Source: a virus. Taken from it: a stretch of 64,000 nt of DNA. The stretch is from IMG/VR virus record IMGVR_UViG_3300035193_000045; one strand, given 5' to 3'. Shown in pieces: positions 12,865 to 50,570 of this stretch (positions within the stretch are counted from its first letter, which is position 1; the number at the start of each line of letters is the position of its first letter). A program made the position numbers and the translations under genes. The notes below the pieces were generated by a model. It did no database searches and was not told where the DNA came from. It saw only the letters and a program-made list of their open reading frames with translations.

Positions 12865-13061
12865 CGCTTAATGACATAACGCTCCTTCCCCCTTATAACT
12901 TTCGATAAATCAACAGGAAGTACTACTTTAATAGGCTCGCCACACCAATAACATTTAGAAGTGCATATATCCCCGTTCCAAATAATCCTACCCTTTACAT
13001 GTAATTTAAAACCGTCATCAGTTCTTTGAATTATTTGATTACGGCAATTAGGGCACTTCAT
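12861..13061 (-). CDS. zinc-ribbon protein
   Basis: MKCPNCRNQ...CYWCGEP: two CxxC pairs in 66 aa. Confidence 0.55.
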   Translation of the reverse strand: MKCPNCRNQIIQRTDDGFKLHVKGRIIWNGDICTSKCYWCGEPIKVVLPVDLSKVIRGKERYVIKR

Positions 13062-17332: not shown

Positions 17333-17568
17333 TACCGCGCTCTCCATGTCCTAGGTTGTTCTCCAAGTAATTCAACAACTTCATCCATGTAAAATCCCCC
17401 TCTTTCAGCAATCCTTTCCGCAGACTGGGTATTATTCCATTTTTTATGATATGCTTCCCATACCTTTAAATGTTCTCCCCAAGAAATAAACCCATCAGGT
17501 ATACGTAGTAATTTACTGCCAATAACCCTTACTATTCGTTCTTCATCCATCAACCTACCTCTTTCCAA
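17332..17568 (-). CDS. hypothetical protein
   Basis: 78 aa; overlaps the stop of the giant gene by 19 nt. Confidence 0.55.
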   Translation of the reverse strand: MERGRLMDEERIVRVIGSKLLRIPDGFISWGEHLKVWEAYHKKWNNTQSAERIAERGGFYMDEVVELLGEQPRTWRAR

Positions 17569-23376: not shown

Positions 23377-24984
23377 TTACAAAACTACATCCAATATTAA
23401 ACTTTTTTTCACTTCATCATCTTCTTCATTTTGATCAACTAAATCATCCTCAGAATATTTAGACAATAAAGATCTTATATCTTGTTCCCCATTACCCCCT
23501 TTCTCATTATCATCTTGTGTCATTCCATTTTCATTTTGGTCACCTTCTTCTTGTTGCTGCATTGCTTGTGCTTGTTGTTTATTCTGGATATAAACCTGAT
23601 TGAGTATAATGTCTCCTTGGTCATCCGGTAATGGGGGTCTATCTTCTTCAGCCCTTAATTCATTTACAGTAATATAGGTTTGAACACGTTTCTGATTTCT
23701 TGTAGCTACTGCATCTTTTGTTTCTGCATCAAGCCCCATAAACTCAAAAGTAAAATCAGAATTAATAGGCTCTACTAAATGAATAGCAATTAATTCACCT
23801 ATGTCATTCAATAATGGACGTAAACCGCGCTCTTTACTTTCAATAATCTTTTCAGCAGATGAACTTTCAACCAAAGCTCTCGATTGACCGGTATTGCCAT
23901 AATTGAAATTAATCTCTGCTGGATCAGTTGCATATACAGCAGAAGCTTCTTTAATAAGAAAATCCATCCATGCAGAAAACTCCATATCCCTATGTGTCTG
24001 CTGCATATTAATCCATTCAATTCCATCGGTATTAGTTATAGGAGTTTTCCATGCATTATTCACTGAAGAAAGTAAGTTATACCAATGCCTTTTAAATTCA
24101 GCAAATTGCTTAGCATTCGCTGTTCCTTTAAAATTCAAAATACCTTTGGCACTAGAACCTTGTGTAAAAAACTTCTGATTATATTGATGGCCGTACAATA
24201 ACGAAGTAATTGTAGACACCAATAATTCTAATTCACTTACACCATATCCTTGAAGCCTGATATTAGTATTTGGGTGTCTTACACCAAATACCATTTCATA
24301 TTGGGTATATTCATTGATCACTACTCCATCGTATACTTGTACATATCTAATCTCTTTAGTTTTGTCTTCATCATTGAATACGTTCCCATTATCTGCAATA
24401 CGAATAGTAGCTGCGTCTGTTGCGTACCATTCAGCAGGTAAACCTTTTCTATTGGGGACTATTTCAAAACACATTTGATCATATATAAGAGTGTCAAATA
24501 CTAATTTTTTTAGAAATGTTTTAAAACTATCCCTCCCTCTAGGATTATTAGTCACTCCTGTATTTAATAAAATATTATTCATTTGTGCAATGAATTTCTG
24601 TTCTTGTTTTGTGGTATTCTTATCCTTGTCCTTTAATACCACTCTAAACCCCAATGAGAATTTATCTTGTTGTGGAGTTGCAAAAGCCGCTACTTGATTC
24701 ATTCTAAGAAATACAATTGCTTGAACAATTGGAAGTTTACAAAAAATATTCCACAAAGTAATATATGTAATAGAGGAAGGCCGATCCTTATATCCAAATT
24801 GTTCTACTATTGAATAAGGATCAAAGAAAATAGACTTAGGATCATTATCTGCCTTTTGCACTGGATTAGATAATTGCTGTGCTTGAACATTGATTGCTTG
24901 CCGTGACTGCTCAAGTTTAGCTTTTATCAAATCCGTAGCAATAGGCATCATTTCTTGAAAAGTACTAATAATGCCCATAATCAA
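23377..24984 (-). CDS. portal protein
   Basis: 535 aa with an acidic C-terminal tail. The central ...RDMEFSAWMDFLIKEASAVYATDPAEINF... resembles the portal wing/stem region. Lies within the head-assembly neighbourhood. Confidence 0.7.
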   Translation of the reverse strand: MIMGIISTFQEMMPIATDLIKAKLEQSRQAINVQAQQLSNPVQKADNDPKSIFFDPYSIVEQFGYKDRPSSITYITLWNIFCKLPIVQAIVFLRMNQVAAFATPQQDKFSLGFRVVLKDKDKNTTKQEQKFIAQMNNILLNTGVTNNPRGRDSFKTFLKKLVFDTLIYDQMCFEIVPNRKGLPAEWYATDAATIRIADNGNVFNDEDKTKEIRYVQVYDGVVINEYTQYEMVFGVRHPNTNIRLQGYGVSELELLVSTITSLLYGHQYNQKFFTQGSSAKGILNFKGTANAKQFAEFKRHWYNLLSSVNNAWKTPITNTDGIEWINMQQTHRDMEFSAWMDFLIKEASAVYATDPAEINFNYGNTGQSRALVESSSAEKIIESKERGLRPLLNDIGELIAIHLVEPINSDFTFEFMGLDAETKDAVATRNQKRVQTYITVNELRAEEDRPPLPDDQGDIILNQVYIQNKQQAQAMQQQEEGDQNENGMTQDDNEKGGNGEQDIRSLLSKYSEDDLVDQNEEDDEVKKSLILDVVL

Positions 24985-29224: not shown

Positions 29225-29785
29225 CTAGTCTACCCACCCACAAGTACAAATAATAGAAATAGGAACATCTATAATGATAGGAGAGGATGTGTCCAATTTA
29301 CAATTAACCCATTTACCATTATTAGGATCATTCTTATTTGACCAATAATCTGCATTCTCACATATATAATCAGCTATTATTAAAACCTCTTGAATATCGT
29401 CTTCTTCATCTATATTTACGTAATGCCTATGTGCTTTCTCTAAAAGCTCAATATCTTTTTTTGTAGGATTTTTTATAAGACACAAAGTAGGTGAATTTTC
29501 AGAAGTAACCCAAACAAGTAAAACATTATAATCTGCTAAGGTAAACGCTCCTAGGCTTTCTGCTGCACGTATATTTAATTCCTCAACAGGAATTTGAAGA
29601 AATCTCGCAATGCTTTCATTTTGAGTATCACTAAATGGAAATTGTTTAGCTCGCTCAATATCTGATACAGATGTAACTGACACTTTCAATGTTCTTGCAA
29701 GATCTCCAAGAGTTTTACCTTTTTTCTTTCTTTCCTCACGAAGGTATTCTCCATACAATCTTTTAGTGACATTTTTAATCAACAT
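29225..29785 (-). CDS. XRE-family HTH transcriptional regulator with unknown C-terminal domain
   Basis: KKGKTLGDLARTLKVSVTSVSDIERAKQFP is a typical Cro/CI-type HTH; 186 aa. Confidence 0.75.
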   Translation of the reverse strand: MLIKNVTKRLYGEYLREERKKKGKTLGDLARTLKVSVTSVSDIERAKQFPFSDTQNESIARFLQIPVEELNIRAAESLGAFTLADYNVLLVWVTSENSPTLCLIKNPTKKDIELLEKAHRHYVNIDEEDDIQEVLIIADYICENADYWSNKNDPNNGKWVNCKLDTSSPIIIDVPISIICTCGWVD

Positions 29786-30530: not shown

Positions 30531-30884
30531 TTATTTATCCAAAAACCGATCTACCTTCCGTAAATTCAATCCAGTTATATCACTACGCCCAGTCCCCCAG
30601 CATTTATCGCAAACATCTTCGGTAATACTCTGTCCCCCTATTCCTCTTTTCCAAGTTGCAGTAGAAGAATACGCTTTCGTGCCTTCCCCTCCACAAGACG
30701 AACAAATAACTCCCGCCATTGCAAATACCTGAGACCGCATTCTATGTAATTCTTGTAATGCACTCATTACTCGTAATTCAGGATCAGTTCCAATTAAACA
30801 ATTTTTTGCCCTCTCACAAGCTTGCTTCCACTCCTCTAAAAGAAATGGTTTTCCGTAATCATTACTTTCATCCCAAACAGTCAT
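30531..30884 (-). CDS. DnaJ-type zinc-finger (CxxCxGxG x2) protein
   Basis: CSSCGGEG and CDKCWGTG motifs in 117 aa. Confidence 0.55.
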   Translation of the reverse strand: MTVWDESNDYGKPFLLEEWKQACERAKNCLIGTDPELRVMSALQELHRMRSQVFAMAGVICSSCGGEGTKAYSSTATWKRGIGGQSITEDVCDKCWGTGRSDITGLNLRKVDRFLDK

Positions 30885-31138
30885 CTAGGTATCCTTTGCC
30901 TTTCTAAAGAAATTACTGTCCTGTTAGTATAGTCAATCTCAATAGGAATATTTCTATATCTATTTTCTCCATTACTATCTTCATAAATTACCTGCATCCA
31001 ATTAGGTATACTATCCCGTAATACCGAAAAATAAATATCCCCTATTACGAAATACCATTTATTAGGACACTTTAAAATAGAATAGGTATTACGTAATTCA
31101 ATTAATTTATCCATTATTTCAAAAATATTAAACATCAT
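30881..31138 (-). CDS. hypothetical protein
   Basis: 85 aa, 4-nt overlap with the downstream gene. Confidence 0.5.
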   Translation of the reverse strand: MMFNIFEIMDKLIELRNTYSILKCPNKWYFVIGDIYFSVLRDSIPNWMQVIYEDSNGENRYRNIPIEIDYTNRTVISLERQRIPR

Positions 31139-31526
31139 CCCTTGTATCTAAATGACAAAAATCACCACATTCATTCATATATCGACGTTCCCCTATAGCC
31201 AATAATCGTTCATCTAAAAATTCATCCCGATTACACTCAATAAACTTATGACATAAAGATAACCCTATCCTAATTTTATCCGGGGGTGAATACTGTGTTG
31301 TAATCTCTCCAAAACATGCACAATCATGAGTACAGTATCTCCTTTCAGCACTACTATTTCCAGAATAAATGCATTTAACCTTAATCAATTTTCCTGCTCT
31401 ATTAATGTACAATAATCCACGCCAATCTATTTTTACCTTCGGCATTTTCCCATTTTCAAAATTCTTTAATACATCTGCTTTTACGTAGTTTGCTTGCTTA
31501 GACATTTTAATTCTCCTATTTTCCAA
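31128..31526 (-). CDS. Cys-rich hypothetical protein
   Basis: 132 aa with scattered Cys/His (CTHDCACFG...CHKFIEC...CGDFCH). Confidence 0.5.
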   Translation of the reverse strand: MENRRIKMSKQANYVKADVLKNFENGKMPKVKIDWRGLLYINRAGKLIKVKCIYSGNSSAERRYCTHDCACFGEITTQYSPPDKIRIGLSLCHKFIECNRDEFLDERLLAIGERRYMNECGDFCHLDTRDDV

Positions 31527-31774: not shown

Positions 31775-32152
31775 TTATTCTCCCTTCTTAAATTTCATTA
31801 AACGAAATCCTTTTTTAAAAAATAATAAGGATTTGTCTTTTACTAAAGCTAAATGCGAATATTTCCTTGACTCATTTATTAATTCTTTTAATCTGACAAA
31901 TTGCTTATCTAACCTTAGCAATTCATCCATACATTTATTTCTAAAAAATACAATAGAAGCATCTAAAGCCTCTTCCCTAGTTTCACAAATTGCCCAATGT
32001 GGGCAACTTCCTCTATGCCCATTAACATATTGAACCATAGTATACATATAATCTCTATAGAGCAATTCAACTTCTATTGGACCATTATTTGTTACTTCCC
32101 AAACCTTTTGTCCATTCCTAATCCATTTATCTATATCTCTTTTTTTAGACAT
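31775..32152 (-). CDS. hypothetical protein, distant member of the xEEEAL-helix paralog family
   Basis: ...WAICETREEALDASIVFF followed by a coiled-coil tail, as in the 34.3-39.6 kb array. Confidence 0.5.
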   Translation of the reverse strand: MSKKRDIDKWIRNGQKVWEVTNNGPIEVELLYRDYMYTMVQYVNGHRGSCPHWAICETREEALDASIVFFRNKCMDELLRLDKQFVRLKELINESRKYSHLALVKDKSLLFFKKGFRLMKFKKGE

Positions 32153-32389: not shown

Positions 32390-32671
32390 TCAATGGACAT
32401 CATCAATACCTTTCATTTTTGATAAACCTATTCGACAAAATGTATCTATTGAAGATTCAATCTGAGTATATTGAAAACATGGGGTTTCTTTATACCATTC
32501 CTCATTATGGATAGCACACCTATATTTCCCTGGATAATTTCCTATCAAATGTTTACAGGGACCATTACCTACATGATGTATCAAATTTCCTTCTTGAATA
32601 CCTAATTTAGGATTATCTACGATAATAACAGACAAATGAGTACAACAATAGCCACAATGTAAACAAATCAT
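32390..32671 (-). CDS. YkgJ-like CxxCxxCC zinc/iron-chelating domain protein
   Basis: CLHCGYCC...CKHL...CAIHNEEWYKETPCFQY matches the layout of the CxxCxxCC family. Confidence 0.6.
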   Translation of the reverse strand: MICLHCGYCCTHLSVIIVDNPKLGIQEGNLIHHVGNGPCKHLIGNYPGKYRCAIHNEEWYKETPCFQYTQIESSIDTFCRIGLSKMKGIDDVH

Positions 32672-32785
32672 TTTATTTTATTTTTCAGAAATAAAACCTA
32701 AAGCCATTACATAACCAAGTTCTACTGCTAATGATCTATATTTTACTGAAACTAATTTACTCATTTTGATTCTCTGACCAATCTT

Positions 32786-32977
32786 TCAAAACCCTACATA
32801 GGGAATTGCCCAAAATTCCTGATATAATACCTTTGTTAGTTTAGCTCGACAATCACAACAAATAAATTTACCATTTATTTTTACTGTACTTAATATAAGA
32901 TTACAATAAGCACACATTCCTTCTTCCATATGAATAAAAGGAAGATCTTTTATATCTATTTTCTTTTTTTCAGACAT
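32786..32977 (-). CDS. zinc-ribbon protein (paralog of 32970-33269)
   Basis: CAYCN...ICCDCRAKL parallels CDFCN...ICATCRYDM in the neighbour. Confidence 0.5.
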   Translation of the reverse strand: MSEKKKIDIKDLPFIHMEEGMCAYCNLILSTVKINGKFICCDCRAKLTKVLYQEFWAIPYVGF

Positions 32978-33269
32978 AATAGATTATAACTAAACATATA
33001 CCAATAATAATTAAAGAAAATAAGAAAAGCACATTTAATCTATGCGCACAATGTATTCGCGCCAAATTACGTTCACATCCATCAATATTTTTATCTATAA
33101 TAACCTGAACGGCCTTATACAGCATATCATAACGACAAGTAGCGCAAATATAACTATCAACTTTAGCTTTTGCAACTTCCATATTACAAAAATCGCAATA
33201 CTTAAATAAATTAGGATCTATTTTTTCAATGTTAAACATATCTATGCATCCTTTTGATTTTCTGGCCAA
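32970..33269 (-). CDS. zinc-ribbon protein with C-terminal membrane anchor
   Basis: CDFCN...CATC plus C-terminal LFLFSLIIIGICLVIIYYV. Confidence 0.5.
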   Translation of the reverse strand: MARKSKGCIDMFNIEKIDPNLFKYCDFCNMEVAKAKVDSYICATCRYDMLYKAVQVIIDKNIDGCERNLARIHCAHRLNVLFLFSLIIIGICLVIIYYV

Positions 33270-33454
33270 GCTTTTATATTATTGCATTTGTCCACAGCGT
33301 CTTCCCATTTACATAAGAGGAAATCTAAATTCTTTTTACAAACCCTACATTTACACTTTTCATAATAATAACAATCAAATTTATTTACACCACTATTACC
33401 TTTATATCCACAAAAATGTTCTTCATCACAAGCCGTTACTATCTTTTCAGACAT
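33242..33454 (-). CDS. Cys-rich hypothetical protein
   Basis: 70 aa with 9 Cys. Confidence 0.45.
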   Translation of the reverse strand: MSEKIVTACDEEHFCGYKGNSGVNKFDCYYYEKCKCRVCKKNLDFLLCKWEDAVDKCNNIKAWPENQKDA

Positions 33455-34077
33455 AACCTATATGCCTCCTCCACTTGTTTAGAATTTTTAAATCCTTTAT
33501 ACCGTTCGCCTACTGGATAAGTTTCACACCATTCTTTTACAGTTCTATATTTAGCACCATAAACCCTATGATCCAAGGATTTACTAGGTAATAAAGTCTT
33601 TACTACTCCTTTGTTTACTTCATATTCTACTATAGGTTTTCGACCTACGTCATTGACATCTCTATCAAATAATTGACACCGCAGACTAAGGAATGGAAAA
33701 TAATAAGCAATTATTTTCCATTCATATTCTATCCATTCAACCGTTGCATTAGGCCCTATATTACCATAATGACAACCAATATTTCCTTCCCAATCACACC
33801 AGCCATGAGGACCTTTACTATATTCCGAAGTAATCCATTCATTGCATAAAAAAATCAAAGGTAAATATGTAATACCGCCTTGCCTAAAACCATGTTTATT
33901 TTCCCATATATTAAGGCTATCTGTTCTAATAATTATCTCAGAAGCTTGCTCTTTAGTAATTAATTTACCCAATACTACCATAGCTGAATATTCTGGTAAT
34001 TGAATAGCTTTTAAATCGAATCTAAATGGGATTCGTTGAAATATATTAGTTAAATGCTGAATTGATCTTCTTTCCAT
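33439..34077 (-). CDS. hypothetical protein
   Basis: 212 aa, Trp/Tyr-rich; no motif recognised. Confidence 0.6.
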   Translation of the reverse strand: MERRSIQHLTNIFQRIPFRFDLKAIQLPEYSAMVVLGKLITKEQASEIIIRTDSLNIWENKHGFRQGGITYLPLIFLCNEWITSEYSKGPHGWCDWEGNIGCHYGNIGPNATVEWIEYEWKIIAYYFPFLSLRCQLFDRDVNDVGRKPIVEYEVNKGVVKTLLPSKSLDHRVYGAKYRTVKEWCETYPVGERYKGFKNSKQVEEAYRLCLKR

Positions 34078-34326: not shown

Positions 34327-34944
34327 TTATCCCTTCCACATTAAACTAATATAGTGTAAAGCATCTTCTTTTGTATAGAATAAACTTTCTCGTTCTCTTA
34401 TCGCATAAATGTATTCATCTAATTCACTACAAAATAAATAAGTAGTACGACAATTACATTCATCGTAGCTACCTTCTTGCAAAATACGTCCTTTTTGAAT
34501 TCGAATAGATGCGCTCTTAATAAATACATAATAAACAGGTAATTCTTTATCAATACATTCATGAAAATCTGAATTAGACCTAGGACCTATTTTTCTAACC
34601 AATTTTGCATCAGGTGAAAAAAGATATTCATAAAATTCTTCCTGCTTTTTATTTATAAATTCTATAGCTCTAGTTCTATCAGGTTCATTATCTATTAACA
34701 GAATAGTATATGTTTTAATACTTCCGTCAAACTTATGTATTGTATATTGACACCTTTTATATCTAACCAATCGAACCTTATTCATTCCAATAGAAGAACA
34801 ATCTTTATCAGTAAAAATTAAAGGTGTTTTATTATATAAAGGAATACTTATTACGTCATAGCCATTATCTACATCTACCCGCCTAACTTGATTATGCAGT
34901 GGCCCACCTATATAACGAATATTTTCATACACCATTATTTCCAA
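34327..34944 (-). CDS. paralog-array member (family unit in C-terminal half)
   Basis: IGPRSNSDFHECIDKELPVYYVFIK...LFYTKEDALHYISLMW. Confidence 0.6.
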   Translation of the reverse strand: MEIMVYENIRYIGGPLHNQVRRVDVDNGYDVISIPLYNKTPLIFTDKDCSSIGMNKVRLVRYKRCQYTIHKFDGSIKTYTILLIDNEPDRTRAIEFINKKQEEFYEYLFSPDAKLVRKIGPRSNSDFHECIDKELPVYYVFIKSASIRIQKGRILQEGSYDECNCRTTYLFCSELDEYIYAIRERESLFYTKEDALHYISLMWKG

Positions 34945-35471
34945 ATCCTTTCTATTTCGGATAACACTAATTTATTAGTATAAAAAATACTATCAATAGG
35001 TAAACTCCATCTTTGAGGAGGTACATCCATTGCTTCTTCTATTAATAAAAAATCATGACTCTTAATTAAAGGATCTATTTGATTAATTATACCTTTTATT
35101 ATTAATATCGTAGACAATGTTTTAACAAAACTATAAACAATAGTTTTATCTTTAATACACTTTTCTATTTCTTCCTTTGTTCTTGGACCAATGCTTATTT
35201 TATTAGAATTATTTTGTTTAATATCCCATAAATAATAAGCATGTGATTTACAGACCCCTACTGATTCACTATCAATAGGTTCTTCTACCACATCATCTCT
35301 ATCTAAATCCGTATATACGTAACACTTATTAATACTATCCCCCTTATCTATCATTATTCCATCTATTTTAAAATTAATATATTGACCATTGCTTCCATTA
35401 TACACAAAGCAAACTGTACCATTGTTCATTAGATCTATTAACTCATTTATCTTAAAAGGCTTCCACTCCAT
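34935..35471 (-). CDS. paralog-array member (two family units)
   Basis: INELIDLMNNGTVCFVYNG...CKSHAYYLW, then IGPRTKEEIEKCIKDKTIVYSFVK...IFYTNKLVLSEIERIW. Confidence 0.6.
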   Translation of the reverse strand: MEWKPFKINELIDLMNNGTVCFVYNGSNGQYINFKIDGIMIDKGDSINKCYVYTDLDRDDVVEEPIDSESVGVCKSHAYYLWDIKQNNSNKISIGPRTKEEIEKCIKDKTIVYSFVKTLSTILIIKGIINQIDPLIKSHDFLLIEEAMDVPPQRWSLPIDSIFYTNKLVLSEIERIWK

Positions 35472-35821
35472 TATACTCTATCCTCCTCTATATCTGCTTG
35501 TTTCCAATACTTATTTAAAGCCAATATAGCACTTTCTCTGTCATAAAATAAATAATTCATAGGTCTACTATATCCGCTAATATGCCAATGCGTTTCAACT
35601 ACTGGATAAACTAAACATAGAATCTTATTAGATTTTGGAAGCCATTTATCTACACAAATAGATTTACCGCTAAGCCGACTATAAGAATTCACAATAACCC
35701 TAAATACAAAACCTTCTTGTACATCTTCTCGTATATTAATAGTCCAAAGTTCAGTTTTATTTTTAATACATTCTCTTACTTCCTTTACCGTAGTTAAGAA
35801 ACTGGTCATATTATTCACCAT
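35471..35821 (-). CDS. paralog-array member
   Basis: VKEVRECIKNKTELWTINI...LFYDRESAILALNKYW. Confidence 0.6.
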   Translation of the reverse strand: MVNNMTSFLTTVKEVRECIKNKTELWTINIREDVQEGFVFRVIVNSYSRLSGKSICVDKWLPKSNKILCLVYPVVETHWHISGYSRPMNYLFYDRESAILALNKYWKQADIEEDRV

Positions 35822-36137
35822 TTATCTTTTTCACGAATTGTACTAATTTTTCCATTAGTTCCTTTTCCAATTCTTTTGCATCTTTAATAGTTTTCTGAAC
35901 CTTATCTAATTCACTAGAATATTGTAAAGCCCATGCATGATCTTCTGATAAGCCAATGCTAAATGGACTTACTTCTCCATGAAAATTTAATCCAGTACAA
36001 ACTACTTTACATCGAGCAGCAGTAAAAACTATCTTACGTATGATTACCTCATAAGGTATGTTCCTATCAATAACATAACAATGGGTTTCATTATCTAAGC
36101 AATCAATTAACTGATTAATAGTTAATGCATCATACAT
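35811..36137 (-). CDS. paralog-array member
   Basis: INQLIDCLDNETHCYVIDR...LSEDHAWALQY plus a coiled-coil tail. Confidence 0.6.
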   Translation of the reverse strand: MYDALTINQLIDCLDNETHCYVIDRNIPYEVIIRKIVFTAARCKVVCTGLNFHGEVSPFSIGLSEDHAWALQYSSELDKVQKTIKDAKELEKELMEKLVQFVKKINGE

Positions 36138-36501
36138 TTTCTTTTTTCTCCTGTTCTGCTTCTACACTCTCTAAATAATCTACCCACATATTTCTTTCCA
36201 ATTGTAAATCATATATTGAGGAAATAAGCTCAGATATTTTTTGAACAGCATACAATACTTTAGCATGCTCCCTACTTAATCCCACTAATGCTATAGATAT
36301 TTCTTTACATATGACAACACCACGTTCATTCTCCATAGAGACATATTCTTTTTCTTCATCACAAACAAACTGACAAATTTTACCAATAAAATAAGAATCA
36401 GTAATACTATCATAAACATAACACAAGGAATTCTTATCCTTTATCAAATCCCTAATTTTATCTAAAGTCAATACGTCATTCATATCCGTAACTCCTTTCA
36501 A
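36130..36501 (-). CDS. paralog-array member
   Basis: LDKIRDLIKDKNSLCYVYD...LSREHAKVLYAV plus a coiled-coil tail. Confidence 0.6.
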   Translation of the reverse strand: MKGVTDMNDVLTLDKIRDLIKDKNSLCYVYDSITDSYFIGKICQFVCDEEKEYVSMENERGVVICKEISIALVGLSREHAKVLYAVQKISELISSIYDLQLERNMWVDYLESVEAEQEKKENV

Positions 36502-36794
36502 TGCCTCACTGAATCATCAGTCATACTCATTAAAGCTATATTAGCCATTAATTCTTTTGCTTCATTTCCCAATTCTTCTATAATAACCTTTCTATCTACA
36601 TCTAATACCATTTTAAACTTATCAGGTAGTTCTAATTTTGGTCTATTGGTATTATATATCAAATTAAATGCTTGCAAAAGCCCATCTGCTATACCAAGCA
36701 TATAACTCGACGTATACGCATTATCAGGATTATTTGCTTCATTGGTAATAATCGCTAATTCTTCCATTCGCTCTTTAATTGATTTTGATTTCAT
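36498..36794 (-). CDS. hypothetical protein
   Basis: 98 aa, helical-looking; no family motif. Confidence 0.5.
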   Translation of the reverse strand: MKSKSIKERMEELAIITNEANNPDNAYTSSYMLGIADGLLQAFNLIYNTNRPKLELPDKFKMVLDVDRKVIIEELGNEAKELMANIALMSMTDDSVRH

Positions 36795-37005
36795 TTATAA
36801 TCCTTTTTTCTTCTTCCATAAGACCTTTCCAACCATCTACTTCAAAAATAGACTGTAACCGTTTTGAAAGAAGTGCTACTTCTCTTACATCAAAAAATAA
36901 TCCTTGTATAGTAAAGAAAAAGAAACCCGCTAATCTAAATGCACTAAAATCTTCTTTAGAAATTTCTATAATATCCCTGTACGTCGATACAATTGATTTT
37001 TCCAC
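36775..37005 (-). CDS. hypothetical protein
   Basis: 76 aa with a central hydrophobic stretch FRLAGFFFFTIQGLFF. Confidence 0.5.
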   Translation of the reverse strand: MEKSIVSTYRDIIEISKEDFSAFRLAGFFFFTIQGLFFDVREVALLSKRLQSIFEVDGWKGLMEEEKRIINEIKIN

Positions 37006-37190
37006 TATGTACCTCCAAAATACTTTATAAAGCCTTCTATTAAAGAATACAAGGCAATACCTATACCAAAAAATACCGTAAAGTAAAACAATACTTGTTG
37101 TAGTTTATTAGGTAATCGGACTGTAACTATTAAAAATACTAAGAAAAAAGTCCATACTATATACAATATTTTCACTTTAAAAAATATCAT
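37005..37190 (-). CDS. small two-helix membrane protein
   Basis: ILYIVWTFFLVFLIVTV and VLFYFTVFFGIGIALYSLI hydrophobic segments. Confidence 0.5.
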   Translation of the reverse strand: MIFFKVKILYIVWTFFLVFLIVTVRLPNKLQQVLFYFTVFFGIGIALYSLIEGFIKYFGGT

Positions 37191-37209
37191 TTATACTTTA
37201 CCCATATTT

Positions 37210-37398
37210 CTATCCCCTAATATTGAATATATAAAAACCATTAAATATTAATAAAGATATTTTGACTATAAAAGCAGAATGAGTACATATAGTAACTAAT
37301 CTTTTTCTCTTTATAACCAAAGCCATACTCAATAAAGTGTCGCTGACTAAAAGAAATAATATATTTAGATATATAATACCTATAAATGAATGATCCAT
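37210..37398 (-). CDS. small membrane protein
   Basis: 62 aa, mostly hydrophobic with a central KRKR loop. Confidence 0.45.
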   Translation of the reverse strand: MDHSFIGIIYLNILFLLVSDTLLSMALVIKRKRLVTICTHSAFIVKISLLIFNGFYIFNIRG

Positions 37399-37409
37399 TT
37401 TACTTCTCC

Positions 37410-37607
37410 TTATTTCCTTTTTAAAAGTTTCATTTGTTTATCCCACATAATACATGCTTCTTTACTAGAATCACAAGCAGAAGTCCTTAAGCAGCATTCA
37501 TCACATACTACGGCAAAATAAGGTAAACTAAATCTCAATTTACTACTTCCACAAATACACTTTTCCTCAATTAAAAAATCTTCTCCATTCTCGGATATCT
37601 TAAACAT
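37410..37607 (-). CDS. zinc-ribbon protein
   Basis: CICGS...CDECC Cys pairs in 65 aa. Confidence 0.5.
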   Translation of the reverse strand: MFKISENGEDFLIEEKCICGSSKLRFSLPYFAVVCDECCLRTSACDSSKEACIMWDKQMKLLKRK

Positions 37608-37610
37608 CTC

Positions 37611-38060
37611 TTAACCCACCTTTCTATTCTCTATAGGGTTTATCTTTTTACACTTCTTTAAACCAATTGCATTCATTCCACGAATAGCTTTATTTATAGA
37701 AGCTATTTGTTTATTCACTGAATAAAGACCTACAGTGAATATAAATTCAATTGCTTCTTCTTCGGCCTTAAACATAAAGATATGTTTATTATGACTCGAT
37801 ACCTTATATAATCCTGGAAGTATCTCAGCCACCCCATTATCTACAAAACAATAACTATAGAAAAACAAATCCTCTTTATAACCTCCTGAATAATTTGTAT
37901 GTGGCGCCATATCTTCTACAGAAACTATTAATACTTTATCATATTTAAGACTATTTAAATCGTCACTAGCAACTACCCTATATACTGGCTCTTTATTAAT
38001 AACAACCATTTCTAAATCAGTTCTGTTCATTGAGTGTTTTGGTTTATTGCCTCTATGCAT
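37611..38060 (-). CDS. paralog-array member
   Basis: Start refined to MHRGNKP (GAGGTG 4 nt upstream; ATG 2 nt after the upstream stop). ...IFMFKAEEEAIEFIF plus tail. Confidence 0.55.
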   Translation of the reverse strand: MHRGNKPKHSMNRTDLEMVVINKEPVYRVVASDDLNSLKYDKVLIVSVEDMAPHTNYSGGYKEDLFFYSYCFVDNGVAEILPGLYKVSSHNKHIFMFKAEEEAIEFIFTVGLYSVNKQIASINKAIRGMNAIGLKKCKKINPIENRKVG

Positions 38061-38061
38061 T

Positions 38062-38466
38062 TTACACCTCATAAATAGTACACGAAGTAGTTCTAGGCAT
38101 ATGTATTGTAGACAATAATATACCAAATTCTTCTCCGTACTTATTAAATTCACAAGCCATTTTATTAATATATTTTATCTTTTCTTCTATATCTAATGAT
38201 ATTCCAGCCATTAAAGCTTTAACTGCTAACTTTTTAGTTCTGCACAATGTAAAGGCATGATCCAATGAATCAATTATTCTATACTGCACACCCTTTTTTT
38301 CTGTAATGCAGTATTCATAGTAAAAACGAACAGACGTCTCTCCTATATATTCACTAGGTACTATCCTTTTAACTACGCCTAATGAAATACTCCTTGAATT
38401 TAAATCTACTAAATACACAATGACATTATCCTCTATTAATTTTACTACTGCATCCTTCGACAACAT
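38062..38466 (-). CDS. paralog-array member
   Basis: VVKLIEDNVIVYLVDLN...FTLCRTKKLAVKALM plus a coiled-coil tail. Confidence 0.6.
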   Translation of the reverse strand: MLSKDAVVKLIEDNVIVYLVDLNSRSISLGVVKRIVPSEYIGETSVRFYYEYCITEKKGVQYRIIDSLDHAFTLCRTKKLAVKALMAGISLDIEEKIKYINKMACEFNKYGEEFGILLSTIHMPRTTSCTIYEV

Positions 38467-38467
38467 C

Positions 38468-38830
38468 TCATTTACCTTCCTTTCTTAAAATTGATATATA
38501 CATCAATTTATCAGATAATTCACATATCTTTCTATCGACGTTAATCATAATACTTTTCAAACTACTTATCATATATTGTAAAGCTTCTTCCTCTGATTCA
38601 CATAAAGCAATGTATTTAGAATCATATGAATGCATAGTATAGAAATATTTATTTTCTATATAAGACATCCACCAAATATTATTATCATGTTCATTTACCG
38701 TAAAAGATTTAATAAGTATTACTTTGTATTCAACATCTATTCCTTTTTGTATTACTAAATACAAAGGTACCTTTTCTTTAATGTAGTACTTAATGCTTTG
38801 CCTATCACTATTTGTTTCTAATAAATTCAT
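38468..38830 (-). CDS. paralog-array member
   Basis: IKYYIKEKVPLYLVIQK...ALCESEEEALQYMI plus tail; GGAGG upstream. Confidence 0.6.
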   Translation of the reverse strand: MNLLETNSDRQSIKYYIKEKVPLYLVIQKGIDVEYKVILIKSFTVNEHDNNIWWMSYIENKYFYTMHSYDSKYIALCESEEEALQYMISSLKSIMINVDRKICELSDKLMYISILRKEGK

Positions 38831-38890
38831 TTATTACCTCCATATTATTTAAAATAAATTTATTAAGGACAGTCATTTATTATATAGCTA

Positions 38891-38921
38891 ATACCTAAAT
38901 GTATTTAGGTATTTAAGTACC
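38891..38921. promoter_or_regulatory. ATACCTAAAT-GT-ATTTAGGTAT palindrome plus AGGTATTTAAGTACC
   Basis: 10-bp arms with a 2-nt spacer (38891-38912), overlapping a GTAC-type half-site (38907-38921), in the 114-nt intergenic gap. Confidence 0.55.
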
Positions 38922-38944
38922 AAATTTATACGTTTTTTCTGGAA

Positions 38945-39220
38945 TTATATTTTTTCTATAGAAGTAATCTCTATTTTTACTTTATAAAGTCTTGGATTAT
39001 GCTTTAATTCATCACTTACTTCTTCAAAATTATACTCTATTAATGGAACTGGATCCATATCAGTAATAAATGAATCAAAAGAACAAAGACTACCTAACTT
39101 GTTATGCCACCCTTTTACCATTCTTGGTTTTTGTCTATATAAATAAATGCCAAAAGAATCTACACCTATCCATCGAAAATTTTGTAATACTAATTTTTTA
39201 AATTTATTCTCCACTTTCAT
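38945..39220 (-). CDS. hypothetical protein (paralog of 39645-39866)
   Basis: FRWIGVDSFGIYLYRQKPRMVKGW parallels CYAIDESGDVYYYEKKP...GMW. Confidence 0.5.
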   Translation of the reverse strand: MKVENKFKKLVLQNFRWIGVDSFGIYLYRQKPRMVKGWHNKLGSLCSFDSFITDMDPVPLIEYNFEEVSDELKHNPRLYKVKIEITSIEKI

Positions 39221-39593
39221 TTCCTACATTACGAGTAATTAAAGATAACTGCTTACCTGATTTAACAATTTTCTTATTAAAATCACTAATCGCTGAATTT
39301 AAATAAAATACTTTACTATCTATGTATTGTTTCATTTCTTTATACATATAGCTAAGAGCTTCTTTTTCTGTTTCAAACAAAAATTCATCTTTTGACCATG
39401 GATAACTTTCTCCTGTTTTAGAAAAATGCATATATTCAAAATTAACACGCATTTCATCATGGGAACCTTCAACTGAAGTAATAAGAATAGGCGTACAATA
39501 CATGCCACATTTATTAGAAGTATTTACTAAATACAAAGACACCTTTTCTTTCATCGCAGTCAATACTTTTTCTTTCTTCATACAAAATTTCAT
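39204..39593 (-). CDS. paralog-array member
   Basis: Start refined to MKFCMKKEK (GGAGGA 4 nt upstream). VLTAMKEKVSLYLVNT...FLFETEKEALSYMY plus tail. Confidence 0.55.
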   Translation of the reverse strand: MKFCMKKEKVLTAMKEKVSLYLVNTSNKCGMYCTPILITSVEGSHDEMRVNFEYMHFSKTGESYPWSKDEFLFETEKEALSYMYKEMKQYIDSKVFYLNSAISDFNKKIVKSGKQLSLITRNVGNESGE

Positions 39594-39644
39594 TTTGTCC
39601 TCCATAAAAATACCGGTCATTAAACCCAATTTTCATTAATAAAC

Positions 39645-41004: not shown

Positions 41005-41481
41005 TCAAATATCGGGATAACCCGTACAAGACCCATTATCACTAAGCAAATATCCAGATGGTAATGGTATTAATTTATACCCAGTACTCGCAATAAGCAT
41101 CCTAGGAACAAAATAATCTGCACATAAACGTGGATTGCTAATAATGAATACCCCATCCCGTACGTATCGAAGCCTATCAAAACGTAAATCTTGTAAATCA
41201 TAATTATTTACAACGACTAATCGTCCATAAATCTTTACAAGACTAGGCATCCGTACAGAATACGCAGAAGCGTTAACAACCGTCAAATCACCCTGAATAC
41301 AATAAGTGGGTTTTTCCTCCCAATAATCGGCATCGTCTTGATTATCGATATCAATGGCATTCCTACATTTATGCCGAGTAACTACGGTAAGTCCTGCTTG
41401 ATCTTCTATAGTATCAATTTCAAAATCTTGGTTTTCACAAGCAAAAGAACAAAACAAAATCAATAATAGAAGGTACTTCAT
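41005..41481 (-). CDS. secreted/lipoprotein-like protein with receptor L-domain-like repeat
   Basis: MKYLLLLILFCSFAC signal/lipobox-like N-terminus. IYGRLVVVNNYDLQDLRFDRLRYVRDGVFIISNPRLC resembles receptor L-domain LRR-like turns. Confidence 0.4.
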   Translation of the reverse strand: MKYLLLLILFCSFACENQDFEIDTIEDQAGLTVVTRHKCRNAIDIDNQDDADYWEEKPTYCIQGDLTVVNASAYSVRMPSLVKIYGRLVVVNNYDLQDLRFDRLRYVRDGVFIISNPRLCADYFVPRMLIASTGYKLIPLPSGYLLSDNGSCTGYPDI

Positions 41482-41927
41482 TTAGTGTCTCCTTTTCGTA
41501 AATAGTTCAACAACTTTTCTCGATAATACCGTTCACCTTTTTCAAAAAAATCATAACCTATCCATAACAATTTTTCATCTGCTTCCTCCTTTCTTTCAAA
41601 CACCCAACTAATTGGTATATAGATAATATGGCCCCTATAATGTAGTATTACTTCCTGTTCCCCTGTACTCTTTAAAAAACTATCTGAAATTTCAAAACTA
41701 TTAGATCTAATAATTTTAAGAAATTTATAAGGATCAAATTCACCACCCATAAGTGCTATATTAACAATGTATTGGTAATCATCTAAAGCTTCTTCATTAT
41801 CATTATTATCACTAAAATCTAAATAAGGTACTACAAAATACAAATGAACCCCTCTATACAAATGAACCCCTCTAGCCTTAAGTTCATCATTAAATTTAAC
41901 TAATTCTTCTAATCGTTCTATTTTCAT
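41478..41927 (-). CDS. hypothetical protein (MKIERLEELVK start)
   Basis: Shares its first 11 codons with the upstream gene. Confidence 0.55.
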   Translation of the reverse strand: MKIERLEELVKFNDELKARGVHLYRGVHLYFVVPYLDFSDNNDNEEALDDYQYIVNIALMGGEFDPYKFLKIIRSNSFEISDSFLKSTGEQEVILHYRGHIIYIPISWVFERKEEADEKLLWIGYDFFEKGERYYREKLLNYLRKGDTK

Positions 41928-43310: not shown

Positions 43311-44135
43311 TTACCTATTTCCTTTCATAACCCCCCTTCTCAAAACTGGATTCCACAAATTCAATTTAACCTCCCCTAATCCTTTGCAATTATAACACGT
43401 ACTATAGTACGGTTTATCATCAGACCTAATTTCCACTTGGCCAGATCCTTGACAATTTTTGCATACTACCCCTATTTTGTTCTTTCCAGGGATTATACGC
43501 ATCCTATACAATTTTTTAATACGTAATTTATTATGAGATAAAAGCTCTGTAAAGGACATCCATTTCGTTTTATCTCTGCTCATTATATAAGATTCAATAT
43601 CTTGCATAGTGACATTTTCTTTAAAATTAATATCACAAAATTTATTAATAGGATAAAACCTCCCTGACCCATTGCAAACTTTACATTCAATTTCAGTATG
43701 ATGCTCTGATTTACGATATTTTCCCGTGCCGTTACAATACCGACAAGCATAGGAAAATAACCCTACACCATTACAAGTAGGACATTCTCCAGTACCCAAT
43801 ACTTGCCCTCTATCATGATATATATGATATCCTTTTCCTGAACAGACATCACAAGACCCGACATCTATCTCTGTAGTGGGGAAACCTTTCCCTAATGACA
43901 CAACTAAATCCCCCTCAATAGTCCTATCCGAGATAGATGTATTAATTCCCAATTCTTTTATTTTCTCAAACAAAAATTCATATGCCGATGTTAGCTCAAT
44001 AAAAGCTGTTTCACTCCCCCCACAATCCGGATGCCTTTGCATAGACAATTTGCGAAATACAGATTTCAATTCCGCATTATCCTGAAAAAAACCTTCTTTC
44101 TTTTCAAAAACCCTTAACGCGTGTGTTAGATCCAT
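43311..44135 (-). CDS. DnaJ-like co-chaperone (J domain + six CxxCxGxG zinc-finger motifs)
   Basis: J-domain with HPD (FRKLSMQRHPDCGG). CDVCSGKG, CPTCNGVG, CRYCNGTG, CKVCNGSG, CKNCQGSG, CYNCKGLG. Confidence 0.8.
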   Translation of the reverse strand: MDLTHALRVFEKKEGFFQDNAELKSVFRKLSMQRHPDCGGSETAFIELTSAYEFLFEKIKELGINTSISDRTIEGDLVVSLGKGFPTTEIDVGSCDVCSGKGYHIYHDRGQVLGTGECPTCNGVGLFSYACRYCNGTGKYRKSEHHTEIECKVCNGSGRFYPINKFCDINFKENVTMQDIESYIMSRDKTKWMSFTELLSHNKLRIKKLYRMRIIPGKNKIGVVCKNCQGSGQVEIRSDDKPYYSTCYNCKGLGEVKLNLWNPVLRRGVMKGNR

Positions 44136-48472: not shown

Positions 48473-48642
48473 TTATTCCGCCGTTTTCTAAAAATGAATA
48501 ATTGACGATCTTCTTCAATACAATTAATAACCTTTCTCCTATTATGGTCACAACACAACACTTCCTTATCATCCTTTATAAACTTATACCTACATAAACC
48601 ATCTAATTCCCGTTTTTTACAATCGCATTTCTCATCAAACAT
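48469..48642 (-). CDS. small Cys-rich protein (57 aa, not in the ORF track)
   Basis: Hand translation: MFDEKCDCKKRELDGLCRYKFIKDDKEVLCCDHNRRKVINCIEEDRQLFIFRKRRNK. TAATG overlap with the terminase stop and ATGA overlap with the next start; GGAGG at 48649-48653 (rc). Confidence 0.5.
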   Translation of the reverse strand: MFDEKCDCKKRELDGLCRYKFIKDDKEVLCCDHNRRKVINCIEEDRQLFIFRKRRNK

Positions 48643-50570
48643 TAAAAACCTCCTATTCCAAAATTATATTGATCATCCAATCGCTTCATTTCTTGTAAAG
48701 CAATAATGCTATGTATCTCAGAACATCCATCAATACCTTCTCCAGCTATTTCTTGTAAAATATCTCTGTATATAGGATAATCGTATTCATTGCAAATAAT
48801 ACCATTTCCTTTCTTAATATTATTAATAACATATTTTTTCTTTTCTTCTAAGTCTGTATTAGATATCTTAGAATCAGTTACTATGGTATCATCAACTAAA
48901 TTATGTCTACGAGGTTCAATCTCAACATCATCTCCAAAACTAAAGCCAAAAGCACCTCGTTTAATTGCTTGATTACACAACCAAGTGGACATTACGGTGT
49001 CATCATGCTGACCTACTGATTGAACTTTACCGTCTAAAAAAGTCATTGATCTAAATTCATCAATCAATATATCCGTTAATTCAATACTATGGGCATCTCC
49101 TCTAGGAATTCTAAATTTACCATTTTCAAACAATACACGTAATTCAGGAACACCAAATTCTAATGAATTTTTATTCTGTGCAGTAGTTACAAATTTATAA
49201 ATAGGTAAATCAGTTTCTCTTATTAATTCATCTCCAAAAATTCGTTGCATTTGATTTGCTTCTAAAGTCATTAATCCGGGATCATATATACGTCCCATTC
49301 TATTAATTTCAGATTGCTGTTCTCTATAAGGTAATCCTTTCTTTCGAAACATATCAATCAACCACCTATTCCCAAAGTTATCTAAACCTAAAATAATAAT
49401 AACTGTATAATCTGCCTGAACAGTAGACGAAATGGCAAAGTCAACCCCGGCATAGGGAACAATCCCTTTATCTAACCAAAATTGTAAAGGCATACCTAAT
49501 TTTAAATTAAATTGTTCAACTGGACTACCTTTAAATAGACTAATTGGGAATAAACTCATTTCGTCGCTAATCGGTGAAACTAAAAATTCCCTACCATATC
49601 TAATAAGTCCTATTTCGTCCTTTTTAGTAAGTAAACGCTCCAATGGATATCTATCTGACCAAAGAACATTATTAATAATTTCTCCTGGATTAGATTCAGC
49701 TGGATAATGTTTAAATATATATTGTTTATTTTTTCGTAATTCTCCATACAAATCATTTATATGAAATGGAGTACCTACTACAATTATTTGCCCTGAAGGA
49801 GTGACCATGTTTGAAATAGCATTGAAGAAATAATCATTTTGTTTATTTCTAACTGTCTCACTCCAAGCAGTTTCGTCATTAAGCCCGTCATCTACTACAA
49901 TCCATCTAGGATGAGCACCTCGAACACGAACACCAAAACCCCTAGCATATATTCTATGTCCATTTGCTAATGTAATTTTTTTAGAACCCCATGAAGATTT
50001 CTTTTTAGGAACTAAGTATTGTAATTGAGGATTAGTCTCAATCTCAATCTTAATCATTTCTAAAAATTCAGATGCCTGAGATTGTGTAGCTGAAAAAATA
50101 AACCCGCATTCCCCAGGATATTTAATTGCTTGTCTAATTGGGTAAGCAAAATCAAAAAAATAAGATTTGCCATGATCTCGCGCGCTCAATATACAAATTC
50201 GATTATTATACGCTATTAACTCATCCCATTCAAGGTGATGGTCTCCAATTAAAAATTTACCGTTATAAGGAGGTTCAATAGGTCCAGTTAAAATAGAATC
50301 TGCAAAATAAGCAACAGATTCAAGGATCATTTGTTTATCTAATTCATTTAATCTTATCTCACATTCAGGATTAATATCTTCTAAATCAAAATTAGATTCT
50401 TCCTCAGTTAAATCTTCTTCAACTATTTCATAATCAAAATTAGATTCAAGTGAGGCTAATAGTAATTCATATGAATTAGCAATAGTGGTATTTCTATCTA
50501 TAAAGGGAATAGCTGTCCGTTTAAAAGGACTAATTAAAGGAGTAGAATTTATTATAGGAATACGCTGCAT
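48642..50570 (-). CDS. terL: terminase large subunit
   Basis: Walker A-like ILSARDHGKSYF, Walker B HPRWIVVDDGLND, and a C-terminal RNase H-like nuclease region GVDFAISSTVQADYTVIIILG. 642 aa. Confidence 0.85.
   Translation of the reverse strand: MQRIPIINSTPLISPFKRTAIPFIDRNTTIANSYELLLASLESNFDYEIVEEDLTEEESNFDLEDINPECEIRLNELDKQMILESVAYFADSILTGPIEPPYNGKFLIGDHHLEWDELIAYNNRICILSARDHGKSYFFDFAYPIRQAIKYPGECGFIFSATQSQASEFLEMIKIEIETNPQLQYLVPKKKSSWGSKKITLANGHRIYARGFGVRVRGAHPRWIVVDDGLNDETAWSETVRNKQNDYFFNAISNMVTPSGQIIVVGTPFHINDLYGELRKNKQYIFKHYPAESNPGEIINNVLWSDRYPLERLLTKKDEIGLIRYGREFLVSPISDEMSLFPISLFKGSPVEQFNLKLGMPLQFWLDKGIVPYAGVDFAISSTVQADYTVIIILGLDNFGNRWLIDMFRKKGLPYREQQSEINRMGRIYDPGLMTLEANQMQRIFGDELIRETDLPIYKFVTTAQNKNSLEFGVPELRVLFENGKFRIPRGDAHSIELTDILIDEFRSMTFLDGKVQSVGQHDDTVMSTWLCNQAIKRGAFGFSFGDDVEIEPRRHNLVDDTIVTDSKISNTDLEEKKKYVINNIKKGNGIICNEYDYPIYRDILQEIAGEGIDGCSEIHSIIALQEMKRLDDQYNFGIGGF

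Follow-up and report, generated by a model that had tools for sequence, protein, structure and literature searches.

A multigene family of small, predicted barrel proteins in an uncultivated large tailed phage

Results and discussion

Ten genes encode eleven units of one protein family

The IMG/VR virus record IMGVR_UViG_3300035193_000045 derives from an uncultivated phage with a genome of ~103 kb. The 64,000-nucleotide stretch analyzed here (the window) is part of this large tailed phage. Within the window, ten genes, all on the minus strand, encode eleven units of one protein family (one gene, 34935-35471, holds two units). Genes are named below by their lower coordinate. The units fall into five subfamilies, each of them solid: A (the C-terminal halves of 34327 and 34935), B (the N-terminal half of 34935, together with 35811 and 36130), C (37611, 38062, 38468, and 39204), D (35471), and E (31775). 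An earlier note, made from the letters of the window, had proposed a tandem array built from nine of these genes, and the open reading frames (ORFs) and motifs that it quoted are present in the translations. The paralogs are clustered, but they do not form a single run. Instead, the array is split into an upstream block (39593-37611) and a downstream one (36501-34327); of the six non-family genes interspersed, one interrupts the former and five separate the two.

The upstream block holds subfamily C. Its first gene, 39204-39593, encodes 129 amino acids (aa) from an ATG, while the ORF itself reaches a TTG at 39629; in profile-profile comparisons (hhalign) it is linked to 38468-38830 (120 aa) at P = 3e-7. 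The next member, 38062-38466 (134 aa), is found at E = 3e-7 by a hidden Markov model (HMM) built without subfamily C, and 37611-38060 (149 aa from an ATG at 38060, the start also used by its orthologs P0003, P0011, and P0013-15) aligns with 39204 at P = 4.4e-5. In the downstream block, the subfamily B gene 36130-36501 encodes 123 aa from a TTG or 117 aa from an ATG at 36483 and has an acidic, helical tail; it aligns with 35811 at P = 3.5e-7 and with two paralogs of relatives, c40 and c45, at P = 1e-8 and 5e-9. Its neighbor 35811-36137 (B, 108 aa, with a helical tail) aligns with c45 at P = 2.6e-10, and 35471-35821 (D, 116 aa) is matched by the A HMM at E = 6.5e-6 and by an HMM that leaves out D at E = 8e-7. 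The 178-aa product of 34935-35471 joins a B-type N-terminal domain (residues 1-92, 35196-35471; B HMM, E = 1.8e-32) to an A-type C-terminal domain (residues 93-178, 34935-35195; leave-A-out HMM, E = 4e-5).

The last gene of the block encodes a 205-aa protein in which the C-terminal domain (residues 117-205, 34327-34596) is an A-type unit, matched by the C HMM at E = 1.9e-4. For its N-terminal 116 residues (34597-34944), comparisons with the subfamily profiles gave P = 0.03 or worse; they show no relationship to the family and represent a dispensable insert: this domain is deleted in the relative L007, which has a 112-aa version, and is absent from the 98-aa A-type gene of another relative, L011. 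The idea that this N-terminal half is a degenerate unit was rejected for lack of signal, and not every ORF listed in the earlier note is thus made of family units throughout. The same note had pointed to 31775-32152 as a distant member. This 125-aa protein, encoded 2.2 kb downstream of the array, is what we call subfamily E, and it is tied to subfamily C at P = 5.4e-6, with marginal recovery when E is left out of the search model. Two further genes, 31128-31526 and 41478-41927, were considered and rejected: the N-terminal 'KADVLKNFENGK' of the former and the C-terminal 'VFERKEEADEKL' of the latter resemble the family at the level of short motifs only, and their P values (0.016-0.04) lie within the control range.

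Profile comparisons link the five subfamilies

Homology was assessed with eleven related loci and collected homologs. All ORFs were clustered into 101 ortholog groups, and ortholog profiles were compared by hhalign over 2300 cluster pairs. The lowest P values came mostly from pairs in which both partners belong to the array. Within B, 36130, 35811, and a further pair of B paralogs that only relatives carry were linked at P = 3.5e-7 to 2.6e-10; within C, 39204 was linked to 38468, 37611, and 38062 at P = 3e-7, 4e-5, and 7e-4, respectively; within A, the two C-terminal halves were linked at P = 1.8e-5; and 35471 (D) was linked at P = 1e-5 to a 135-aa paralog that adjoins the 37611 ortholog in relatives. 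Using the window only, BLASTP with iterative HMM searches also formed groups A, B, and C and recruited no plus-strand ORF, leaving 35471, the N-terminal half of 34327, and 31775 as singletons. A first, jackhmmer-like iteration drifted and recruited reversed decoys, and it was not used as evidence.

Links between subfamilies were harder to obtain. Profiles merged from close orthologs only gave P = 0.004 for A-B, 0.005 for A-C, 8e-4 for C-31775, and 0.9 for B-C, while the best of 87 controls per profile ranged from 0.006 to 0.016; A-B and A-C were barely better than these controls, and C-31775 was clearer, yet not decisive. A full-library HMMER search with the C profile added two more distant proteins, P0047 and P0051, which are encoded side by side in L011, a divergent relative with ten family-like genes in the same order as in the window. 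Only once these divergent members were added did the links between subfamilies become significant: A-D at P = 6.7e-6 (82 columns), C-E at P = 5.4e-6 (84 columns), A-C at P = 6.5e-5 (70 columns), A-E at P = 3.5e-4 (64 columns), and A-B at P = 2e-3 (34 columns). Across 425 control comparisons, the minimum P value was 1.9e-3, and 3.8% fell below 0.05. Subfamily B was linked to a merged A+C+D+E profile at P = 4.1e-5 over 115 columns (best of 85 controls, 8.4e-3). The earlier note had tied its proposal to the finding of profile-profile relationships among these ORFs; close orthologs supplied about half of what this calls for, and the addition of L011 altered this outcome.

Searches with HMMs agreed with these comparisons. 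When each subfamily was left out in turn, D was recovered at E = 8e-7, A at 5e-7 to 2e-3, and C at 4e-8 to 1e-3, all well ahead of reversed decoys. Recovery was marginal for subfamily E, at 1.7e-3 to 0.03, and for B, at 4e-3 to 0.3, where decoys began at 0.11. When all 230 ORFs of the window were searched together with reversed decoys, the subfamily HMMs gave cross-matches to family members alone; for example, the B HMM matched 38468 over its full length at E = 1.6e-3 (first decoy at E = 0.68), and the E HMM matched it at 1.4e-3. All 30 representatives can be aligned at the N-terminal motif, whose signature is xxx[ILV]xxx[ILMF][KDE]x[KNEG]xxx[YWF]x[VI], and the C-terminal signature is [LI][FC]x[TSD]xx[ED]A[LI]xx[LIM]; identity between paralogs is 7-30%. 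Collectively, all eleven units, those of the nine genes listed in the earlier note and that of 31775, share common ancestry, with profile links that beat the 425 and 85 controls. We also rejected the possibility that the ORFs are spurious or non-coding: their orthologs are conserved, and the ratio of nonsynonymous to synonymous substitution rates (dN/dS) is below 1.

Each unit is predicted to fold as a small barrel between two helices

AlphaFold2 models cover subfamilies A, B, and C from separate alignments, and they were compared by the order and lengths of their elements. The model of 39204 (C), from 23 C-type sequences, has a predicted local distance difference test score (pLDDT) of 79.5 and a predicted template modeling score (pTM) of 0.69, with helices (H) and strands (E) at H7-16, E19-24, E32-42, E49-54, E70-73, and H76-108. 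The model of 34935 was built from a separate alignment of B- and A-type sequences (pLDDT 76.7), and its elements are H8-17, E20-25, E30-43, E48-54, and H75-89 in the N-terminal domain, and H99-108, E111-117, E122-132, E140-144, E154-158, and H166-177 in the C-terminal domain. An order of helix, four strands, and helix was assigned to all three domains, which were modeled from independent inputs, with matching element lengths. A unit is thereby predicted to consist of ~85-110 residues forming an N-terminal amphipathic helix, a small four-stranded SH3/Tudor-like barrel, and a C-terminal helix. In subfamilies B and C only, the last helix continues as a 30-45-residue tail, for which a role as an oligomerization element is plausible on the models. 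The helical tail that the earlier note described for most members is thus a feature of these two subfamilies, while the others lack a long tail.

Structural searches suggest, weakly, an SH3/Tudor-like small barrel with flanking helices, as a resemblance rather than a family membership. For a single domain, the best Foldseek match in the PDB had an E value of 0.32, and the matches were the chromo-barrels of MRG701 and MSL3, the WYL domains of BrxR and CapW, and Hfq; the target-normalized template modeling (TM) score of the MRG701 chromodomain was 0.52 at that E value of 0.32. The tandem protein 34935 matched SAWADEE and tandem Tudor proteins over both domains (~156 aligned columns) at E = 1.6e-3 and Foldseek probability 1.0, with whole-model TM scores of only 0.28-0.36. 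Members of this Royal family (the SHH1 SAWADEE domain 4IUR, SETDB1, 53BP1, and MRG701/MSL3) share with the models of the units a small antiparallel beta-barrel followed by a helix. However, they have no sequence relationship to the units, which carry an additional helix at the N-terminus and show just four clear strands, and they are eukaryotic chromatin readers, whereas the units are phage proteins. WYL and Sm/Hfq barrels (BrxR, CapW, PafBC, and RNA chaperones) are similar in barrel size and in having an N-terminal helix, and the WYL domain of BrxR was matched at Foldseek probability 0.5-0.7, but at an E value of 0.5 or worse; by contrast with these families, the units are single barrels with no Pfam WYL or LSM match, no winged helix-turn-helix partner, and no Sm1/Sm2 motifs. 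In BFVD, Foldseek returned uncharacterized proteins only (best E = 0.03).

In the family alignment, the conserved columns map to the hydrophobic core and fall in helix 1, in strands b1 and b4, and where helix 2 starts; a conserved Y/W/F in strand b1 also looks like a core position. The most variable parts are the loops and tails. We found no invariant polar or catalytic constellation and no conserved basic patch across this alignment. The isoelectric points (pI) of the units span 4.5-9.5, with basic members (31775, pI 9.5; the tail of 37611, pI 10.5) as well as acidic ones (36130, pI 4.6; the N-terminal unit of 34935, pI 4.5). No membrane segments were found in the family proteins, which are predicted to be soluble; this argues against a membrane-based exclusion role, one of the options raised in the earlier note. 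Their N-termini share no cleavage or targeting motif.

The family appears confined to one phage clade

In the full-library HMMER search, the only query was the subfamily C profile. Against 1.84 billion representatives clustered at 50% identity, it returned ten proteins at E <= 1e-3, one of which is a junk repeat. Word-indexed searches returned 18 proteins for B and one for A, and those that were traced belong to the same clade. We also scanned 76 metagenome loci with homologs of 33439-34077, a gene that adjoins the array, and found the family in three close relatives only. A tblastn search of INPHARED gave no significant match for 34935, 31775, or 35471; one match, MT836248 (E = 2e-3), was rejected as chance, being a bacterial-type contig of 72% GC content. 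An IMG/VR scan with 38468 found nothing. Family members had no match to Pfam Sm, WYL, KOW, or LSM, nor to Tad2/DUF2829, an anti-defense family acting on Thoeris, in Pfam; the sole BFVD entry of that name ranked 35th, with probability 0.13. For anti-defense families in general, the comparison covered PHROGs, Pfam, PDB, and BFVD, none of which gave a significant match, nor did the literature search yield a relevant report of Tudor-like proteins in phages. The family is previously undescribed and new to databases, and, as far as its sequences could be traced, it appears to be restricted to one phage clade.

The expansion is old and individual copies appear to be maintained

Gene-wide dN/dS values were obtained from 3-9 orthologs per group. 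They were 0.18-0.59 for the family, 0.12-0.25 for the conserved upstream block, and up to 0.75 for other neighbors. The family values exceed those of the upstream block only slightly, and the family genes are under purifying selection and are real genes under constraint.

Gene content nevertheless varies. Related genomes carry 8-11 family genes each, drawn from 14 ortholog groups. In P0008, a deletion fuses the first ten codons of 38062 to 37611; P0043, an ortholog of 34935, has an 18-residue internal duplication; and in L009, 38062 and 38468 are pseudogenes that are split, frameshifted, or truncated. At the distance of L011, whose homolog of 33439-34077 is 61% identical, the order is C-C-(membrane protein)-(36498-like)-B-D-A-(33439-like)...E, as in the window. 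Another four family-like genes of L011 (2610-2972, 7039-7305, 8522-8953, and 9449-9856) lack an ortholog in the window, and two of them are E-type paralogs of 31775. Given that the paralogs are only 7-30% identical and that their order is kept in L011, we conclude that the expansion is old and that the copies appear to be individually maintained, which suggests long-lived, sub-functionalized copies rather than rapid churn. The family arose through old tandem duplication, and deletion, fusion, and insertion have continued since; this plasticity is a property of the whole region. The earlier note had read the locus as a rapidly diverging one with the signature of an arms race. Rapid divergence is not supported, in view of the dN/dS values, of neighbors that turn over as fast, and of the order kept in L011; the arms-race reading is supported in part, in that variation in content, fusions, truncations, and pseudogenes are all seen, while gene-wide dN/dS above 1 or divergence faster than that of neighbors is not.

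Several smaller observations were made among the relatives and paralogs. Extra cassettes lie between family genes in L004 (7073-9886) and L003 (11832-12191). In L004 and L005, the cassette includes a YggL-like gene, a DUF1643 gene, and a gene for a 302-aa protein that matches, over its first ~10 residues, the extended N-terminus of the TTG-start ORF of 39204; that of L003 has a RyR-domain gene. In the window, a 31-nucleotide (nt) patch encoding KEKV(P/S)LYLV is 90% identical between 38468 (38752-38782) and 39204 (39524-39554), the two proteins being ~29% identical outside it. This patch may reflect gene conversion or serve as a microhomology in recombination between paralogs.

Possible functions

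On current evidence we tentatively favor, at a little less than even confidence, the view that the units are non-enzymatic binding modules forming an accessory toolkit for host takeover or counter-defense, encoded by a multigene family of one clade. Conservation restricted to the core, no polar or catalytic constellation, and a pI range of 4.5-9.5 together argue for binding modules that are not enzymes. During infection, each paralog would bind a host or phage macromolecule of its own through its variable loops and tail, and the helical tails of the B and C members would mediate oligomerization. Host takeover or counter-defense is the most likely arena, judged by analogy, because the genes behave as accessory genes and because T4 offers a precedent for tandem amplification.

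Two kinds of locus invite comparison. T4-type hyperplastic regions are accessory regions of large lytic phages, and the stretch studied here is like them in its dense, small, same-strand genes with overlapping starts and stops, mostly unannotated and variable in presence; it differs from them in that one family supplies 10 of the 32 genes (about a third) at 30.5-41.6 kb. Poxvirus K3L accordions are an example of tandem amplification. The T4 counter-defense gene tifA is likewise amplified in tandem as an 'accordion' (PMC9391042). Like our array, both involve adjacent copies of one small accessory viral gene that are gained and lost by recombination. However, the tifA and K3L copies are recent and near-identical; the 7-30% identity and conserved order of the phage family indicate, by contrast, an ancient expansion whose copies have diverged in sequence, charge, and tails.

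A more specific form of the favored view, which we regard as distinctly unlikely, is that the array encodes combinatorial Tudor/Sm-like reader or decoy modules, joined by their tails into mixed oligomers that neutralize several host immune or regulatory factors. If true, these would be a new class of multi-target counter-defense proteins, and the old, ordered paralogs would each track a different host system.

A number of results weigh against the toolkit view. Pfam and PHROG scans of the ten proteins and 30 representatives, with E values up to 1, returned no recurrent family, and PDB sequence-profile searches with the C and whole-family alignments returned nothing below E = 0.05, only chance coiled-coil matches. 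The Foldseek matches are weak (E = 0.3 or worse for a single domain; TM scores of 0.28-0.52), and for the tails, coiled-coil formation is an assumption based only on the prediction of a long helix. At the level of whole genes, dN/dS is below 1; in the 11 kb that they share with the family, non-family genes are lost and diverge at a similar rate; and the subfamily order kept in L011 fits stable, housekeeping-like roles equally well. Lastly, the block lies between the terminase and portal genes, outside any recognizable early region.

Other explanations were also weighed, the most basic being that the units comprise two or more unrelated small alpha/beta families, with B the main candidate to split, and that the shared order of elements and the helix-capping motif are coincidental. 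This would account for close-ortholog P values between subfamilies that are not decisively better than the best controls, for a direct B-C comparison that reached only P = 0.048 even after L011 was added, and for the marginal recovery of B when it was left out (E = 4e-3 to 0.3, decoys from 0.11). However, B was linked to A+C+D+E at P = 4.1e-5, far from the best of its 85 controls (8.4e-3), and the B HMM matched 38468 over its full length at E = 1.6e-3, with no decoy before 0.68. Moreover, the models do not differ in predicted topology, 34935 carries B and A units in a single protein, and the N-terminal motif is common to all 30 representatives. We consider separate families very unlikely.

It is also conceivable, though unlikely, that the units are nucleic-acid-binding regulators, that is, Sm/Hfq-, WYL-, or Tudor-like barrels that tune phage or host expression, with paralogs specialized for different targets. 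The structural hints to Hfq, to the WYL domains of BrxR, CapW, and PafBC, and to chromo-barrels point this way, as do the basic members and tails (31775 and 37611). Against it, all single-domain structural matches are non-significant, 36130 and the N-terminal unit of 34935 are strongly acidic, and there is neither a conserved basic patch nor a Pfam Sm, WYL, or KOW match. Highly doubtful, in our view, is a role as virion-associated or assembly proteins (packaged internal proteins, decoration proteins, or chaperones), with diversity arising from conflicts over the capsid or ejection, as with the T4 internal proteins. Such a role would be consistent with a same-strand block between the large terminase and portal genes, and with the very large proteins of 794 aa (with a DarB-like/minor-head-like segment) and 1521 aa (helicase-like) that the phage encodes. 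However, no PHROG structural family was matched, and the N-termini have no shared cleavage or targeting motif; position alone is weak evidence, since ~20 kb of small genes, including DnaJ-like, helix-turn-helix (HTH), and membrane protein genes, part the terminase from the portal.

Whatever its function, the family is very probably important for this phage group, given purifying selection and a gene order kept across divergent relatives, and ~4 kb, or ~4% of the 103-kb genome, is spent on a family described in no database. It exemplifies a familiar phenomenon, in which small accessory genes of a large phage undergo lineage-specific expansion. With ten or eleven related small proteins per genome, and natural knock-outs and fusions in relatives, it is suited to screens for host partners or for inhibition of defense. 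Should the array prove to be a toolkit for conflict, the anti-defense catalogue would gain a new fold family; if not, the array would be one more lineage-specific ORFan expansion of the kind common in large phages.

Genomic setting and neighboring genes

The window has a GC content of ~31%, and ORFs of at least 120 aa lie almost all on the minus strand. PHROG matches identified the major head protein (1504-2928), the portal (23377-24984), and the large terminase (48642-50570), as well as an SbcC-like protein, a DNA polymerase, UvsX, and a single-stranded DNA-binding protein (SSB). The terminase shares 35% identity with its counterparts in the Bacteroides phages DAC19-23 and SJC03. A megablast search found no nucleotide-level match to INPHARED phages, and a scan of GTDB genomes with the terminase found no relative and hence no clue to the host. 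Relatives recovered from metagenomes are contigs of 102.6-104.4 kb. Scans for sigma-70 promoters, terminators, and Bacteroidetes-type promoters gave no enrichment.

The array lies within the gap between the terminase and portal genes (28000-48600), which comprises ~20 kb of small, mostly unannotated genes on the same strand. Other genes of this stretch encode a DnaJ-like protein with a J-domain and a CXXCXGXG zinc finger (43311-44135), a second CXXCXGXG-like protein (30531-30884), an HTH regulator (29225-29785), and several Cys-rich, zinc-ribbon-like mini-proteins (32390-33454 and 37410-37607). The five minus-strand genes that split the array (36498-37607) encode proteins of 98 aa, 76 aa, 61 and 62 aa (putative membrane proteins), and 65 aa (Cys-rich), and none has a family HMM match; the minus-strand gene between 39204 and 38468 (38945-39220, 91 aa) has no family HMM or hhalign match. 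The 61- and 62-aa proteins (37005-37190 and 37210-37398) are encoded side by side in the middle of the array and are 80-95% identical among relatives. Each appears, from its sequence, to have two hydrophobic, transmembrane-like segments (19-aa hydropathy maxima of 2.2-2.5), and holin-like or exclusion-like roles are possible.

The gene adjoining the array, 33439-34077, encodes a 212-aa protein with invariant PHGWCDW and EW[IV]EYEW motifs. It had no Pfam or PHROG match, and its homologs (27-45% identity) occur in metagenomes of very different kinds, on more than 70 contigs, some of which reach 328 kb. It is a widespread, uncharacterized phage family. Near the head genes, two very large proteins are encoded at 13048-15432 (794 aa) and 17550-22115 (1521 aa); a segment of the former matches minor-head, DarB-like antirestriction, and endolysin PHROGs, and the latter is helicase- and methyltransferase-like. 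Both may be packaged anti-restriction proteins. Lastly, gene 41478-41927 contains a perfect 18-nt tandem duplication at 41838-41873, yielding RGVHLYRGVHLY.

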